DNA of 59,489 nt from Candidatus Pacearchaeota archaeon. Its GTDB lineage: Archaea > Nanobdellota > Nanobdellia > Pacearchaeales > GW2011-AR1. Location: positions 1 through 59,489 of the forward strand of contig JAGVXK010000019.1 of assembly GCA_018303825.1 (NCBI GenBank). The letters are read 5' to 3'. A model generated the notes under the pieces. That model saw only the letters and a program-made list of their open reading frames with translations, was not told the origin of the DNA and did no database searches. Every line of letters starts with the position of its first letter. Position 1 is the stretch's first letter. A program made the position numbers and the translations under genes. This document shows positions 20,008 through 38,382 of this stretch, piece after piece.

Positions 20008-20517
20008 CTAGGGAACAGTAGCGGCGCAATTTATTTTTTCATTAATAATGGCATTATTACACAAGGCAATGCCCTTATCTGTTTTCATTGCCAGCTGTAT
20101 TTCCAAATTATACACTCCCGGAGCATTCACTGCTCTTATTGGAACATTCAAAGGAGGAAGAGCTCTTACCCCTTCCTCTCCAGGAGGCAACGGAGGAGTA
20201 AGTTTGAATCCTTTTGAACCTGTAGTTAACAAATATTTTGTCTGCCGGCTTTCGTTTCCCATCCTTATAAGGACATTTGATATATTGAAGAAACCCTTGT
20301 TTGCGAGAGTTAATTCTAGAGTTGTTCCGGCAGAATCATAGTTACAAGCAACTTCTTTTATAGCTATTGCAATATTGTCTGGACATTCTAATTTATCTTT
20401 TGGAACATAAACTCTTAGAAAAGCATAAACCAAAACAGCAATTCCTACTGCAATGATTACCAAAAGAGCATAACTTACTATCTCGCTTACTCCCTTTTTA
20501 TCTCCTTTCTTGAGCAT
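20008..20517 (-). CDS. Archaeal type IV pilin
   Basis: KKG|VSEIVSYALLVIIAV class III signal peptide and a Cys-bounded globular domain. Confidence 0.75.
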   Translation of the reverse strand: MLKKGDKKGVSEIVSYALLVIIAVGIAVLVYAFLRVYVPKDKLECPDNIAIAIKEVACNYDSAGTTLELTLANKGFFNISNVLIRMGNESRQTKYLLTTGSKGFKLTPPLPPGEEGVRALPPLNVPIRAVNAPGVYNLEIQLAMKTDKGIALCNNAIINEKINCAATVP

Positions 20518-20769
20518 TAATAAAACAAATCAGAGAGGTTTTTATATCTTTGCAGATTAAATCGTGCTTTCTAAAGACTTTCTTGATAATCGCCTTAAAT
20601 CTTTTGCTTCGGTATGCACCTGCTGCTCGTCATACAGCACAGCGTTCTCTCAATCATTCTCTTTTGCGCCCTACCGCCTGAAATATAAATCAAATCTTTA
20701 ATATAATTATCTCCCAGTTTATTATCCATAAAAATTGAATGGAGATTGGTTATTTAAATATTATTGCAA

Positions 20770-21285
20770 TTATGACCTCGAAACATAAGTCTCATTAGCT
20801 TTTGTCTTCTTAACTATCAGATAAAAGTTCTGGCCTACCCTTAAATCAAAATCATATTCGTTCCCGCTGACTGTAATTGTCAAGTTATTTCCATCTGGAC
20901 TGACTGCAGTATTTGAAATGTCTGTTATTTGTCCTGTTGCGCAACTTGTCTCAACACATGCGCTTCCTAAATCCAAAGTTGTATAATTAACTAAAGTTAC
21001 ATTAGTTGAATTCCCGAAAAGAATAAGAAATTGACTGTCTGTATTTGAGTCTGCATAATTTGATGCTAAAAGAGTAAGATTATTCAATATGCCTTCACGG
21101 GACAATCCGCTGTAAACTCCGCTGTCTATGACTTTTCCTCCTTCATAGTCTAATTCTTTTGATAATTCATAGACTTTAGTATCTTCCTTTTGTGTTCTTG
21201 CCTTGTTATAAACGATTCCCAAACTAAAAAGCACAGCGACTATAACCAGTGCCACTATGAGGAAGAACTGCCCTTTTTTATCCAT
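20770..21285 (-). CDS. Pilin-like protein
   Basis: MDKKG|QFFLIVALVIVA class III signal peptide. Confidence 0.7.
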   Translation of the reverse strand: MDKKGQFFLIVALVIVAVLFSLGIVYNKARTQKEDTKVYELSKELDYEGGKVIDSGVYSGLSREGILNNLTLLASNYADSNTDSQFLILFGNSTNVTLVNYTTLDLGSACVETSCATGQITDISNTAVSPDGNNLTITVSGNEYDFDLRVGQNFYLIVKKTKANETYVSRS

Positions 21286-21454
21286 TGATTAAACACACAA
21301 AACAGCTTTTTATATCTTTTTAGATGATTGGCTTTACGTAAATAATATGCCTGCCTCTTTTTGAACATATTTTATGAAAGAAATCTACTAGACAAATAAT
21401 CACTTGGTTGTTTACCACAATAATCTTTAAAAACTTACAAATTGAGCTAGAAAA

Positions 21455-21832
21455 ATGGTTGAGTTTGATTTGGAGATATTAGCAGAAGTTCCTTACCAAC
21501 CTGCGTTTGATGAGAAAGATGGCACGGTCCAGATACCTATTAGACAGGTCAGAACTTCTTTCAACAATGACTTTTCTGAATTTAGTTCTTCTGCTGTTGT
21601 GAGGTTAAAAGACCGAGTAGCGGGAAAAAGAGATATAACTGTTAAAACCAATCGACAGCTAGATATACAAAGAGAAGATATGATAAAAATCTTGGGCGTG
21701 GAAGGTTTTCAATTTTCAAGCAATGGTATATATGACATTGCTCAGATAGATGTCCTAAAATATAAAGATAATGATAAAATTCCGAGAGCCTCATATTTCT
21801 TTCAAGATAGAACAAGTATAAATAACCCTTAG
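21455..21832 (+). CDS. Hypothetical protein
   Basis: 125-aa beta-rich ORF. No recognised family. Confidence 0.55.
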   Translation: MVEFDLEILAEVPYQPAFDEKDGTVQIPIRQVRTSFNNDFSEFSSSAVVRLKDRVAGKRDITVKTNRQLDIQREDMIKILGVEGFQFSSNGIYDIAQIDVLKYKDNDKIPRASYFFQDRTSINNP

Positions 21833-21864
21833 ATTGTTTGCCATTTCTTATAGAATATAAAAAG

Positions 21865-22121
21865 TGTAGGCAGGGAGTTTGCCTAGAAAAAAATTAAAAG
21901 AACCCTCCTGCTTTTCTCAGCTTTGTTTACCTATAAGCACCTTGCTTCTCGCTTAGGGCTGCTCCGATCAAGGTCTGACCCGTTTCACAAGAGCAAGATC
22001 GAACAGGACAAAACGTCAACGTCCAGCAAAAGACTTTTAACTTTCTGCCTCACTTGCTCCTTTAGACCCACCTAAAGCCCGCTGATGAATGGCGAAGGGC
22101 TAGCACGCCGGTCTGCCTACA
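21865..22121 (-). ncRNA. ffs: Signal recognition particle RNA, large bacterial-like architecture without helix 6
   Basis: Terminal helix UGUAGGCAG/CUGCCUACA, long rod, and a helix-8 element GGG-UCAGACC-UUGAUC-GGAGCAG-CCC. TATA-like TTTAAAAA lies about 25 nt upstream and a T5 run just downstream. Confidence 0.75.
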
Positions 22122-22184
22122 TAAAAAATGATTAAACAGACTTTTTAAATCTATCAATTTTCACCAAAGAAAATTATAAAAGTA

Positions 22185-22421: not shown

Positions 22422-22679
22422 ATGGTCTTAAATAAGCTGGAAAAGACAATTTTAACTGCAGGACTAGCTATAGGAATAGGATTAATGCCCTTGGCGGCTA
22501 CATCATACCAAAATATTATGATGAACAGGGCTGGAGGAGAACATAAGATGGAAAAGTATGAAATACATGCACAGAAGATGCAAATTTACAAGATATTGAC
22601 CATAGGTATGGATGCTATCCTTGTTCTAGGTTATTTTTCTTATTTGAGAAATAATTTGAGCAAAAAACCTGAAGAATAA
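22422..22679 (+). CDS. Hypothetical 2-TM protein
   Basis: 85-aa ORF with two hydrophobic segments. Confidence 0.5.
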   Translation: MVLNKLEKTILTAGLAIGIGLMPLAATSYQNIMMNRAGGEHKMEKYEIHAQKMQIYKILTIGMDAILVLGYFSYLRNNLSKKPEE

Positions 22680-22693
22680 TTTGTGCGAATAAA

Positions 22694-24364
22694 TTACATC
22701 TTTTTTAAAACATTTATCCCAAGAAGAGAAAGGGCATTTTTCAAAACAATTGAAAAAGAGTCGACTATCGCCAATCTGAAAGATTCATTATCACTTCCTA
22801 TTACCTTGTTAGAATGATAAAACTCATTAAATTTCTGGGATAACTGGAAGGCATAATTAGCTATTGTGCTTGGAGATAAATCGACATATGCTTTGCGCAC
22901 AATCTCTGGAAAATTGCTTAATTTAGCAATAATCATTTTTTCATCATCGGTAATTGCTCTTATACTTAGCTTTTGTTTTTTATACTTCGCTTTTCTTAAA
23001 ATACTTCTTGCTCTCGCATAGCTGTAAAGTAAATAAGGCCCAGTATTACCTTCAAAGTTCAGGGCTTCCTCCTTGTTAAAAACAATGACACTATTTGAGT
23101 GCTGTCTTAATAAAGAATATTTTATTGCAGAAATTGCAATTGCCAGAGCTCTGTCTTCCAATTCTTTTCCCTTTACTTTTTCCCTTTTTAGTATCTCTGA
23201 TTTGGCATAATCTGTTATTTCTTTCATAAAGTCAGAATAAAGAATGTTATCTCCTGTTCTGGAAGACATCTTCCCTGAAGGAAGCCTAACTTCGGCAAAA
23301 TGAAGAAAATTATAATCTTTTGCTTTAGAAAATTTCATTAATTCCAAAGCTTTCTTTATCTGGGAAGTGTGGAGAAATTGAGCCATGCCAATAGTTGCTA
23401 TTGCGCCCTCTAACTTGAAGTCTTTAAACTTCTTTTCAGCAAGGGCGAGGTCTTTTACAGAGTATAAAACAGTCCCATCTTTTCTCAATAAAACCCAGAC
23501 ACCGAGATTATATTTTTCAAAATTAATTATTATTGCTCCTTCTGAAATTTCAGCTATCCCTTTTTTAACTAATTCCTGAGCAATTTCTTTTCCTCTTTTT
23601 TCAACATCTCTTTCGAAATAGTATTTGTCAAATCTCGTGTTGAGTTCTTTGTATATTTTTTCAAAGGCTTGCAGACTGTAATCTCTTGATTTCTTCCATA
23701 AACTCATCAACTCCTTATCTTTCCCTTCTTCAAGATTTCTGTTTATCTCATCAACTTCTTCCTGAAGCTTTTCATTTTCCCCAAGTCTCTTAACCGCTTC
23801 TACATAAATGGAAGCAATCCATGGTTCTTCTCTCTTCAATTCTTCTTTTGAATGGTATTTTTTATAACACCATATCCATTTAGCAACATGCATTCCTGTA
23901 TCTCCCTGATAATTTGCCCTTATCACTTTATTTCCGTTAAACTCCAGAACTCTTGAAAGAGATTCTCCGAAGCTTGTTGCTCTTATATGCCCTACATGGA
24001 AGGATTTATGAGTGTTAGCCTGTGAAAACTCGATTAGGATTGTCCTGCTGTCCTTGCCAGAGCCATATCTATCCTTTGCCTTCCTGATTGAATCAAGGGT
24101 TTTCTCTGCAAGATGATTCCTGTTTATGAAAAAATTGACATAAGGGCCGACTGATTTTACCAGCTCAAACTCATCTGATTTAATCTTAGAAGAAATTTCC
24201 TTGGCAATTTCCACAGGATTCTTCTTTTCTATTTTGGCGAGAGAAAAACAAGGAAAAGCATAGTCTCCTAAATAGGAAGAAGGCGGAATTTCAATTAAAT
24301 CTACAATCTTCTTCTTGCCTAATTTTACATGCTTAGACAATATATCTGCTACAATCTCCCTCAT
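22694..24364 (-). CDS. argS: Arginine--tRNA ligase
   Basis: GDYAFPCF, HIGH-like FHVGH, KMSSR and FEGNTGPYLLYSYARARSI. Confidence 0.97.
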   Translation of the reverse strand: MREIVADILSKHVKLGKKKIVDLIEIPPSSYLGDYAFPCFSLAKIEKKNPVEIAKEISSKIKSDEFELVKSVGPYVNFFINRNHLAEKTLDSIRKAKDRYGSGKDSRTILIEFSQANTHKSFHVGHIRATSFGESLSRVLEFNGNKVIRANYQGDTGMHVAKWIWCYKKYHSKEELKREEPWIASIYVEAVKRLGENEKLQEEVDEINRNLEEGKDKELMSLWKKSRDYSLQAFEKIYKELNTRFDKYYFERDVEKRGKEIAQELVKKGIAEISEGAIIINFEKYNLGVWVLLRKDGTVLYSVKDLALAEKKFKDFKLEGAIATIGMAQFLHTSQIKKALELMKFSKAKDYNFLHFAEVRLPSGKMSSRTGDNILYSDFMKEITDYAKSEILKREKVKGKELEDRALAIAISAIKYSLLRQHSNSVIVFNKEEALNFEGNTGPYLLYSYARARSILRKAKYKKQKLSIRAITDDEKMIIAKLSNFPEIVRKAYVDLSPSTIANYAFQLSQKFNEFYHSNKVIGSDNESFRLAIVDSFSIVLKNALSLLGINVLKKM

Positions 24365-25376: not shown

Positions 25377-25450
25377 AGCTTCCGCCGGGAGTCGAACCCG
25401 GGACCCCCGCATTACGAGTGCGGTACTCTTGCCAACTGAGCTACGGAAGC
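25377..25450 (-). tRNA. tRNA-Thr (anticodon CGT), CCA not encoded
   Basis: Full cloverleaf: acceptor GCTTCCG/CGGAAGC, anticodon arm CCGCA-CTCGTAA-TGCGG, T arm CCGGG-TTCGACT-CCCGG. Confidence 0.97.
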
Positions 25451-36571: not shown

Positions 36572-36835
36572 ATGGAAAATAAAACAATATCTGCTAGAGT
36601 AGAGCTAGATAATTATGCTAGCAAGGTTTTGGCAGTACTTAAAGCTAAATATAATCTTAAAGATAAATCCGAAGCAATTAATAAATTTGCCGAGTTATAT
36701 GGGGATGAAGTTGTTGAGAAAGAACCAAAAGAGGAGTATGTGAAGCATATATTAGAGGTGACTAATAAGCATCTAGAAAGACATAAGAACAAAAAAATGA
36801 GTATTAAGGAACTAGATGCATTATTTGAAGTATAA
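36572..36835 (+). CDS. Antitoxin (DUF2683-like)
   Basis: KVLAVLKAKYNLKDKSEAINKF...KEEY. Stop/start coupled to the toxin. Confidence 0.7.
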   Translation: MENKTISARVELDNYASKVLAVLKAKYNLKDKSEAINKFAELYGDEVVEKEPKEEYVKHILEVTNKHLERHKNKKMSIKELDALFEV

Positions 36836-37107
36836 TGTTTGACTTCAATCTTACAGATGAGTTAAAAATCAAGATATCTAAGTTAGTCAAAAAGGACAAG
36901 AAGAAAGTAGAGATTATCAATAAAAAGATCAAAGAAATAATAAATAACGATTCTGAGGCTATTAAAAGATACAAAAACTTGAAGCATGATCTAAGCAACT
37001 TTAAGAGGGTGCATATAGATAAGAGTTTTGTTTTAACATTTAAGGTAGATTTGACAAATAATTTTGTTCTATTTGTTGACTTTGATCATCATGACAAGGT
37101 TTATTGA
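36835..37107 (+). CDS. RelE/YafQ-type mRNA interferase toxin
   Basis: YKNLKHDLSNFKRVHIDKSFVL.F...F.DFDHHDKVY. Confidence 0.75.
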   Translation: MFDFNLTDELKIKISKLVKKDKKKVEIINKKIKEIINNDSEAIKRYKNLKHDLSNFKRVHIDKSFVLTFKVDLTNNFVLFVDFDHHDKVY

Positions 37108-37235
37108 GTTGTACCTTTTTACTACTGGTGCTTTCTGGAAATTGAGACAAAGAAAGATGAAATTATTTTAAGGAAGAAGAAAAAGTAATATTAAGAACAA
37201 AAACAAGGAGCAAAACGATACTCTATTCAGATAAT

Positions 37236-37469
37236 TCATTTAGAAATAGCTATTTGTTTTAATCTTGCTTCTTTGATTTTGTGAATCTCTTTTAATATTC
37301 TCTTTCTAAGATTAAATGAATTTGCCCATTTTGCATATGCCTGCCAACCTTGATAGATTTCCATAAGCTTCCAATAATAAATCTCATTATTTTTCAGTTC
37401 GTTTATTATCCCTTGATGTTTTCTAATATAATTATAATAAATCTCCATTCCTTTCATTTGGTAAGTCAT
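37236..37469 (-). pseudogene. C-terminal remnant of a DGR-type reverse transcriptase
   Basis: KLMEIYQGWQAYAKWANSFNLRKRIL resembles the conserved GWxAYAKWANS tail of DPANN DGR RTs. No YxDD domain, and an in-frame stop lies two codons upstream. Confidence 0.6.
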
Positions 37470-37602
37470 TATTTACTTAATGTCGTGATTTATTTTATGG
37501 CCTTATCTAGATTAAGGCACTATTAACTGACGTGGGGCCCTAGCAAAGCATAAATGCCCTACTAAGACATTATCTTGAGAAAAGAATGATTAATAAATCT
37601 GC

Positions 37603-38382
37603 TTAATTTTTTTGCGCACTGGCTTCACCGGAATTCAAACCCCCAAAAGCATAGCCATCATTGTCGCAATTGCAGCTGTTGCCGCCGACATACAACCTGT
37701 AGCTGGCCAAGAGCCTACCGGAAGTCAAACTGACAATCTTCAATGCAGGCGTTTTAACAGGATCAAAACCCCAAACATTTACTCCTCTTGGATAATTAGC
37801 CTTATCTGCAATTGTCTTTAAATTTCTCGCTATAGGTTCTGTTGTATTTTCCAAAACTCTAGCTAATCCTTCGGTTACAAAGGTATCTGCGTCTTGAACA
37901 TCTCTTGTAAATAAACCATAGTCGACAAAACCAAATCCATCTTCTCCAACATATATATCTCCATTTTTGACTCCTAATTTAGTAGCTCTATCTCTTAAAG
38001 CATTAAGTGTTTTTGCATCAACTATTGGTTCACCATTATCTGCAACAGGCGGATTAGCCCAAACACCCTCAGAATCTCTTAAAACATATCCTGCTTGCAA
38101 CCAATTTGGATTAAAAATATCTTTTTTAGCTAAATCTCTAAATTTGCATGCTACAATTGCGATGGACTCTGCAGTTGTTTTAGGCTTAAAAGTTATAATA
38201 GGCATTGAGAGCACATCAGAACTATGAGTATACTCTTGTCTCATGGCGGCTCTGTTTACGGCGTAAGTATCGGGACCAAATCTCGCTACAACTAAATCTT
38301 CTTTATCTCCTGGAACCCCGATTAAATTTATATGAGGTCTACTAGATTTTGATTCTATTAAGCCATATCTACTCAATTTCAT
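37603..38382 (-). CDS. DGR target-like protein with a CLec-type variable C-terminus
   Basis: C-terminus RLYVGGNSCNCDNDGYAFGG is encoded almost entirely by NNC/NNT codons. Adjacent to the RT remnant. Confidence 0.7.
   Translation of the reverse strand: MKLSRYGLIESKSSRPHINLIGVPGDKEDLVVARFGPDTYAVNRAAMRQEYTHSSDVLSMPIITFKPKTTAESIAIVACKFRDLAKKDIFNPNWLQAGYVLRDSEGVWANPPVADNGEPIVDAKTLNALRDRATKLGVKNGDIYVGEDGFGFVDYGLFTRDVQDADTFVTEGLARVLENTTEPIARNLKTIADKANYPRGVNVWGFDPVKTPALKIVSLTSGRLLASYRLYVGGNSCNCDNDGYAFGGLNSGEASAQKN
37645..37725 (-). other. Variable repeat (VR)-like segment
   Basis: GCC AGC TAC AGG TTG TAT GTC GGC GGC AAC AGC TGC AAT TGC GAC AAT GAT GGC TAT, consistent with AAC/AAT codons diversified at adenines. 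Confidence 0.6.

Follow-up and report, generated by a model that had tools for sequence, protein, structure and literature searches.

In the canonical archaeal signal recognition particle (SRP), represented here by the Rfam model RF01857 (Archaea_SRP), Methanocaldococcus jannaschii (PDB 1LNG/2V3C) and Archaeoglobus fulgidus, the RNA carries a helix 6 whose GNAR tetraloop is the binding site of the protein SRP19. A 2010 review of archaeal SRP found SRP19 genes in all archaeal subgroups, coexisting with helix 6, and described helix 8 as capped by a GRRA tetraloop (GGAA, GGGA or GAGA) whose third-position adenosine clamps the helix-6 tetraloop, an interaction that it considered likely to exist in every archaeal and eukaryotic SRP RNA (PMC2905702). 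SRP19 itself has been argued to be subordinate or dispensable, based on a viable Haloferax deletion and on SRP19-independent SRP54 binding (PMC2905702; PMC6098224). The small cytoplasmic RNA (scRNA) of Bacillus-type bacteria, captured by RF01854 (Bacteria_large_SRP), combines an Alu domain with helices 5 and 8 and has neither helix 6 nor SRP19. Here we describe a 59,489-nucleotide contig of a Candidatus Pacearchaeota archaeon (JAGVXK010000019.1; referred to as the window), for which an earlier note, made from the sequence alone, had proposed an SRP RNA of the bacterial large type that lacks helix 6. Our data indicate that this locus very probably holds the only SRP RNA gene of a DPANN archaeon of Pacearchaeota type from groundwater, and that the RNA is archaeal by descent and has lost helix 6.

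Rfam searches at gathering thresholds report no SRP RNA in the window, only a tRNA. Using E-value thresholds instead, we found that RF01857 aligns to positions 21864-22122 of the minus strand over model positions 1-317, with 72.5 bits and an E-value of 3.7e-16. The RNA is collinear with the whole model, and helices 1-5 and 8 are present and supported by covariation; what is missing is the helix-6 block, in which 40 model positions correspond to 0 bases of the window RNA, confirming the absence of this hairpin noticed earlier. With its canonical archaeal counterparts the RNA shares helix 1, Alu helices 2-4 with their loop-loop pairs, a helix 5 with the UGA...GUCC hinge, a helix 8 with CAG(R)/AGCA symmetric and GAAAC/UAA asymmetric loops, and an archaeal-type SRP54 partner. 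It differs from them in having no helix 6, in carrying UUGAUC instead of GRRA on helix 8 and AUU instead of UGUNR, in its sub-cut-off score, and in being encoded by a genome without detectable SRP19. RF01854 also aligns end to end (model 1-256), at 56.6 bits, and its helix inventory of Alu domain, helix 5 and helix 8 without helix 6 is that of the window RNA. The proposed bacterial-large type therefore holds as a description of the architecture but not of affinity, as the archaeal model fits better, and both host and SRP54 are archaeal. As in Bacillus-type SRP, a single GTPase protein presumably sits on helix 8. The window locus is the sole match in the genome (E <= 1; 806 kb in 23 contigs, 86% complete), and in view of this one collinear, full-length match we rejected a second SRP RNA as well as a split or permuted one such as that of Thermoproteus. 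Rfam matches to LOOT, MIR5298, Histone3 and SNORD94 near the locus (E 0.17-8.7) are attributable to chance.

Comparative evidence supports the individual helices. The single-sequence minimum free energy (MFE) fold of the window RNA (-90.5 kcal/mol, z = -2.43) contains all seven nested pairings of the earlier note, as does the RNAalifold consensus of an alignment (A1) of the window sequence with the orthologous RNAs of 29 genomes from the same family and order, 30 RNAs in all. Of the 70 pairs in this consensus, 54 have undergone compensatory changes on both sides. On the same alignment we then scored an explicit structure made up of the closing helix, helices 2-4 with the loop-loop pairs between helices 3 and 4, and helices 5 and 8. 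Paired cells amounted to 92.4% and both sides had changed in 61 of the 78 pairs, so that covariation, which the note had named as a check, bears the structure out. The covariation score was 0.541, compared to 0.09-0.15 when pairing partners were slid by 1-3 columns, which also left 37-50% of cells paired, and the observed covariation and pairing values were reached by none of 500 shuffles. Compensatory changes occur in 36 of the 43 pairs of helix 5 and in five of the six closing-helix pairs present in the consensus (an outer four plus two). Within the Alu domain, helix 2 (GACC/GGUC), helix 3 (GGCG/CGCC) and helix 4 (CAUC/GGUG) are accompanied by a loop-loop interaction of 5 bp (AGCCC/GGGCU) that is 100% paired and in which one C-G pair is replaced by U-A in 7 of the 30 sequences.

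The RF01857 alignment would place the helix-6 block between window positions 21991 and 21992. At this point helix 5 terminates as GAUCUUGCU-CUUG / CGAG-A-AGCAAGGU, and all that separates it from helix 8 is a 6-nt linker, UGAAAC, in the 5' strand and UAAG in the 3' strand. Linkers this short cannot accommodate a third hairpin, in agreement with the earlier observation that there is no room for helix 6, and a helix-6 hairpin is present in none of the 30 aligned RNAs.

The protein complement of the genome is consistent with this reduced RNA. A single SRP54 is encoded on contig C13 (positions 36776-38137), a 453-residue protein with N, G and M domains (PF02881, PF00448 and PF02978) and the RNA-binding motif SRMARIAKGSG, together with a single FtsY (TIGR00064, 309 bits). 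Compared against all PDB chains, SRP54 matched the proteins of M. jannaschii (2V3C, 368 bits), Pyrococcus furiosus (350 bits) and Sulfolobus (about 294 bits) ahead of Ffh from Bacillus subtilis (264 bits) and E. coli (250 bits); on these scores it classifies as archaeal type, nearer to archaeal than to bacterial proteins. For SRP19 there was no Pfam match (PF01922) in the genome. A hand-built profile, for which we extracted the SRP19 sequences of M. jannaschii, A. fulgidus and mammals from PDB alignments, was run with filters off against the 7381 six-frame open reading frames (ORFs) of at least 40 amino acids, and its best E-value of 0.14 is noise. SRP54 and FtsY without detectable SRP19 is the protein set expected by the earlier note, whose proposal of a reduced, SRP19-independent archaeal SRP is thus supported by model alignment, covariation and gene content.

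To what extent are these features shared? Within the family and order of the window organism, 35 of 41 genomes gave full-model SRP RNA matches of 259-272 nt, and none of the 41 had SRP19 over the cut-off. These relatives gave four chance-level PF01922 matches (E 0.02-0.07); together with two in the further MAGs described below, they were rejected as SRP19, lying as they do inside frames of 91-413 amino acids, two with internal stops, at unrelated places. A sample of 201 genomes from the phylum, all of one class and 200 of them at least 90% complete, contained SRP RNA matches in 190, with lengths among the matches listed of ~267-278 nt plus one of 324 nt, and SRP19 (PF01922) in 0 of 201. Of these 201 members, 177 that share the helix-6 gap pass the RF01857 cut-off, the highest score being 177 bits, and three G+C-rich members align with a 40-to-0/2 gap at helix 6. 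In seven further DPANN metagenome-assembled genomes (MAGs), the scanned contigs contained archaeal-type SRP RNAs measuring 261-281 nt, and none of the seven has SRP19 over the cut-off (two chance-level matches, E 0.04). A scan of the genome collection for the helix-8 tip motif recovered MAGs of Candidatus Pacearchaeota, Woesearchaeota and Nanoarchaeota, as well as one labelled Nanohaloarchaea, which belongs to a different, smaller phylum and whose SRP RNA has a 40-to-3 gap at helix 6. Of all 70 genomes of this second phylum, 60 gave full-model SRP RNA matches (260-283 nt), and SRP19 was found in 0 of 70. Helix 6 and SRP19 are missing from at least two DPANN phyla, with no SRP19 in the 271 genomes sampled, and the trait is accordingly not peculiar to the window organism.

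Several individual records in this survey deserve mention. The 324-nt SRP RNA of one Nanoarchaeota-class genome (G210, L196; G210:C8:61136-61459, minus strand) has an insert of ~50 nt exactly at the helix-6 position. The alignment of this insert with helix 6 is poor, the RNAs of family-mates are short, and no SRP19 was found in the phylum sample; we read it as probably a secondary, lineage-specific insertion rather than a retained helix 6, and it may be a new hairpin, an intron-like insert or a remnant. Two genomes of the second phylum each have two SRP RNA genes, 16 kb apart in G302 (C7:407761-408040 and 423716-423996) and 2.5 kb apart in G308 (C3:80236-80500 and 82955-83229), which is unusual for such small genomes. 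Lastly, archaeal-type SRP RNAs of 261-263 nt without helix 6 lie on three contigs of bacteria-labelled MAGs: JAFCCB010000011.1 (L092, labelled Dojkabacteria), DATJPO010000031.1 (L082, labelled Omnitrophota) and DAIQOR010000001.1 (L060, labelled 'bacterium'). The last is 294,885 bases long, as is contig C15 of G014, a genome from the window's own family, and all three records look misbinned or mislabelled.

The breadth of this distribution raises the question of direction. One possibility is that the first archaea lacked helix 6 and SRP19 and that DPANN have retained this state, in common with Bacillus-type bacteria; both features would then be later innovations on the way to other archaea and eukaryotes. 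Two DPANN phyla without a confirmed helix 6 and without any SRP19 in either full sample speak for this scenario, as do the uniformly short RNAs (save the one with a lineage-specific insert), the lack of both features in bacteria, and some published rootings that put DPANN at the base of the archaea (mentioned in PMC8421398). The position and monophyly of DPANN are disputed, however, and these lineages have undergone many other reductive losses of universal markers, several of them listed beside PF01922 (PMC8421398, PMC10134863). Because of these losses we rate a derived loss as much more likely than primitive absence and regard the ancestral scenario as unlikely, while recognizing that the direction is something we infer. 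If it were true, the helix-6/SRP19 character could be a rare genomic change with which to mark the archaeal root and to test DPANN monophyly.

A second question is whether SRP19 has been replaced or has become unrecognizable, such that an undetected small protein, either a highly divergent SRP19 or an analogue, still clamps helix 8, perhaps via its altered loop. Some of our results weigh against a particle that has truly dispensed with SRP19, and against the conclusion as a whole. The PF01922 search missed, at its pre-filter, the Sulfolobus protein, one of four archaeal controls, and it was for this reason that the filter-free profile search was added; the same failure leaves some room for a very divergent SRP19 or for a non-homologous protein that binds helix 8. 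At 86% completeness, absence from the window's genome is weak evidence by itself, and the argument rests on the relatives. The window RNA, moreover, falls short of the RF01857 gathering cut-off of 96.5 bits. DPANN genomes are also rich in small ORFs without a family, several of which flank the SRP RNA locus, and the UUGAUC loop and UAA bulge are strongly conserved. Against a hidden SRP19 stand the absence of helix 6, which is its main docking site, the noise-level outcome of the filter-free hidden Markov model search over all ORFs, and the non-orthologous places of the weak Pfam matches in relatives. Bacteria, some of which share the UUGAUC loop, likewise do without such a protein. Taken together, we consider it improbable that an SRP19 or a substitute has been overlooked.

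The earlier note had left open convergent loss or acquisition from bacteria, and the latter would make this a true Bacillus-type RNA, or a whole bacterial SRP, in an archaeon. The architecture is indeed identical to the bacterial large type, RF01854 matches end to end and, at 56.6 bits against a gathering cut-off of 60, misses its threshold by less than RF01857 (72.5 of 96.5), and the UUGAUC helix-8 loop recurs in 4.5S RNAs of Acholeplasma and Phycisphaerales. In absolute bits, however, the archaeal model is favoured, it reaches 110-177 bits in G+C-richer class members with the same helix-6 gap, and Archaea_SRP is the model reported for every archaeal-type relative scanned with cmscan. Acquisition from bacteria is disfavoured by these higher scores and by the archaeal-type SRP54. 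Acholeplasma and Phycisphaerales, which share the loop, have SRP RNAs of the small 4.5S type, about 100 nt long, that lack an Alu domain and match RF00169 (Bacteria_small_SRP), so that the similarity of the loops is best taken as convergent. A resemblance of GUUGACG...GUCCUG to B. subtilis scRNA had also been pointed out. It stems from the hinge motif, but the archaeal RF01857 consensus carries this hinge too (uGAcccccCGuCC), so it is no evidence of specifically bacterial ancestry. A bacterial source is, in our view, highly improbable and archaeal descent is favoured. With a 23-contig MAG and an RNA below Rfam cut-offs, one might also suspect an assembly artefact, or a pseudogene in decay, that has suffered an internal deletion. 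This is effectively refuted by recurrence of the helix-6 gap in more than 280 independently assembled genomes and by helices maintained through compensatory substitutions, with invariant SRP54-binding nucleotides and a conserved promoter box pointing the same way.

Helix 8, the partner of helix 6 in the canonical particle, reads GGGUCAGACC-UUGAUC-GGAGCAGCCC in the window RNA. The symmetric loop bound by SRP54 (CAGA/AGCA) is flanked by the asymmetric loop (UGAAAC/UAAG), and the SRP54-binding columns are invariant across the 30 aligned RNAs. The tip is different: there is no GRRA tetraloop, and the 6-nt UUGAUC loop, which had been read correctly from the sequence, replaces it at unchanged total length. 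CC-UUGAUC-GG (or UUGACC) characterizes the window RNA and most of its family; in the order's sister families and in the greater part of the class the tip is still GGAA or GGGA. In alignment A1 the UUGAUC loop is strongly conserved along with the UAA bulge. UUGAUC can be read as a UGAU/UGAC loop closed by a U.C pair, that is, as the URRU/URRC type known in bacteria as an alternative to GNRA on SRP RNA (PMC4091067); the GGAA tetraloop accelerates docking of SRP with FtsY in E. coli (PMC4091067). Our motif scan recovered the tip from further DPANN MAGs and from 4.5S RNAs of bacteria with such non-GNRA loops, namely those of Acholeplasma sp. (L038) and Phycisphaerales (L047), both matching RF00169, whose tip GGUCAGRYCUUGAYCGRAGCAGCC is identical to that of DPANN RNAs. 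It looks like a recurrent alternative to GGAA in unrelated lineages. With helix 6 gone, the adenosine clamp between helices 6 and 8 would no longer constrain the tip, which might then drift from GGAA to UUGAUC, and it is plausible that this position became free when helix 6 was lost.

The UGUNR motif between helices 3 and 4 has changed as well. In the window it is AUU (22088-22090, minus strand), a 3-nt deletion relative to the uGUaAC of the model. Throughout the order it is cut to 2-3 nt (AUU or GUU; A1 columns 36-50), and in other orders of the class it is intact as CCUGUAACCC. With this reduction, a second SRP RNA motif that was supposed to be conserved has eroded. The RNA has a G+C content of 48%, compared to 33% in its flanks, and low G+C together with the UUGAUC tip and the eroded UGUNR accounts for a score below the Rfam threshold. 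As both Rfam scores are sub-cut-off, standard annotation would miss the gene.

The coordinates of the features discussed here are collected in Table 1. Both transcription signals mentioned in the earlier note, a TATA-like box and a T-run, are present. In almost all of the 30 relatives the SRP RNA is preceded, at the same register, by a box of the TTTAAAAA/CTTAAATA type, and this conservation lends comparative support to an archaeal promoter and to an independent transcription unit downstream of argS. The T-run, which directly follows the closing helix, is a probable archaeal oligo-T terminator, and we expect from these signals that the gene is transcribed. Around the locus, four ORFs beside the SRP RNA (169, 171, 125 and 85 amino acids; window 20008-21832 and 22422-22679) have no Pfam family. 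Between argS and a tRNA gene lies a 172-amino-acid protein with a C-terminal double zinc ribbon (PF12773; 24403-24921, minus strand). The tRNA gene (25377-25450, minus strand; RF00005, 66.4 bits) has the anticodon loop CUCGUAA, which would make it tRNA-Thr(CGU).

Table 1. Features of the SRP RNA locus in the window, with the evidence for each.
Feature	Position in window	Strand	Basis
SRP (7S) RNA gene without helix 6, 259 nt	21864..22122	(-)	RF01857 and RF01854 matches, covariation
Closing helix, 5' strand UGUAGGCAG	22113..22121	(-)	MFE fold; pairs with 21865-21873
Closing helix, 3' strand CUGCCUACA	21865..21873	(-)	MFE fold, consensus, pair counts
Small (Alu) domain	22065..22113	(-)	Helices 2-4 and loop-loop pairs
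Helix 5, 5' strand (RNA 78-135), with UGA...GUCC hinge segment	21988..22045	(-)	Fold, consensus, pair counts
Helix 5, 3' strand (RNA 172-234)	21889..21951	(-)	Fold, consensus, pair counts
Junction at the missing helix 6: CUUG (last helix-5/proximal helix-8 pairs) and UGAAAC linker	21982..21991	(-)	RF01857 alignment
Helix 8 GGGUCAGACCUUGAUCGGAGCAGCCC	21956..21981	(-)	Aligned to RF01857 consensus ccgGcCAGGCCCGGAAGGGAGCAgCcgg
Helix 8 apical loop UUGAUC, at the GGAA tetraloop position	21966..21971	(-)	Sequence, alignment A1
TATA-like box ATTTAAAAA, lying about 20-28 nt 5' of the first modelled base	22142..22150	(-)	Sequence
T5 run right after the closing helix	21859..21863	(-)	Stem TAGGCAAACTCCCTGCCTA then CACTTTTTAT
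argS, upstream of the SRP RNA gene	22694-24364	(-)	

Collectively, our findings suggest a two-component particle of SRP54 and RNA. In such a particle the M domain of SRP54 would bind the symmetric and asymmetric loops of helix 8 unaided by SRP19, and the retained Alu domain, with helices 2-4 and their loop-loop pairs, could reach the ribosomal factor site. The dispensability of SRP19 in archaea had already been anticipated. Deletion of the gene in Haloferax volcanii and in vitro work with Archaeoglobus show that an archaeal SRP can assemble and work without the protein (PMC2905702, PMC6098224); those are laboratory removals in which helix 6 was kept, whereas in the DPANN lineages sampled here both protein and hairpin are naturally absent across phyla. 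Absence of the protein is also implicit in published marker lists, with PF01922 missing from 152 Woesearchaeota genomes (PMC8421398) and from Parvarchaeales and Jingweiarchaeales (PMC10134863). In the open literature searched, this absence appears only as an accession among dropped completeness markers, and neither of these papers comments on SRP. The searchable open literature, which excludes subscription journals, yielded no report of helix-6 loss in DPANN. What we describe thus appears to be a phylum-scale natural knockout of SRP19 and helix 6 that has not previously been described as such, to which the window itself contributes family-level details only.

These results have several implications. 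The review-level generalization that SRP19 and helix 6 occur in all archaeal groups is contradicted by two DPANN phyla, which provide a natural counterpart to the Haloferax SRP19 deletion. PF01922 wrongly lowers the estimated completeness of these genomes, an effect that has led genome papers to discard it as a marker, and in A+T-rich families SRP RNAs that fall under the Rfam cut-offs would go unannotated. The helix-6/SRP19 character may also inform DPANN phylogeny. For the biology of these archaea, the exchange of GGAA for UUGAUC offers a natural test of how essential the helix-8 tetraloop is, and an archaeal SRP54 presumably works there on a bacterial-style RNA scaffold.

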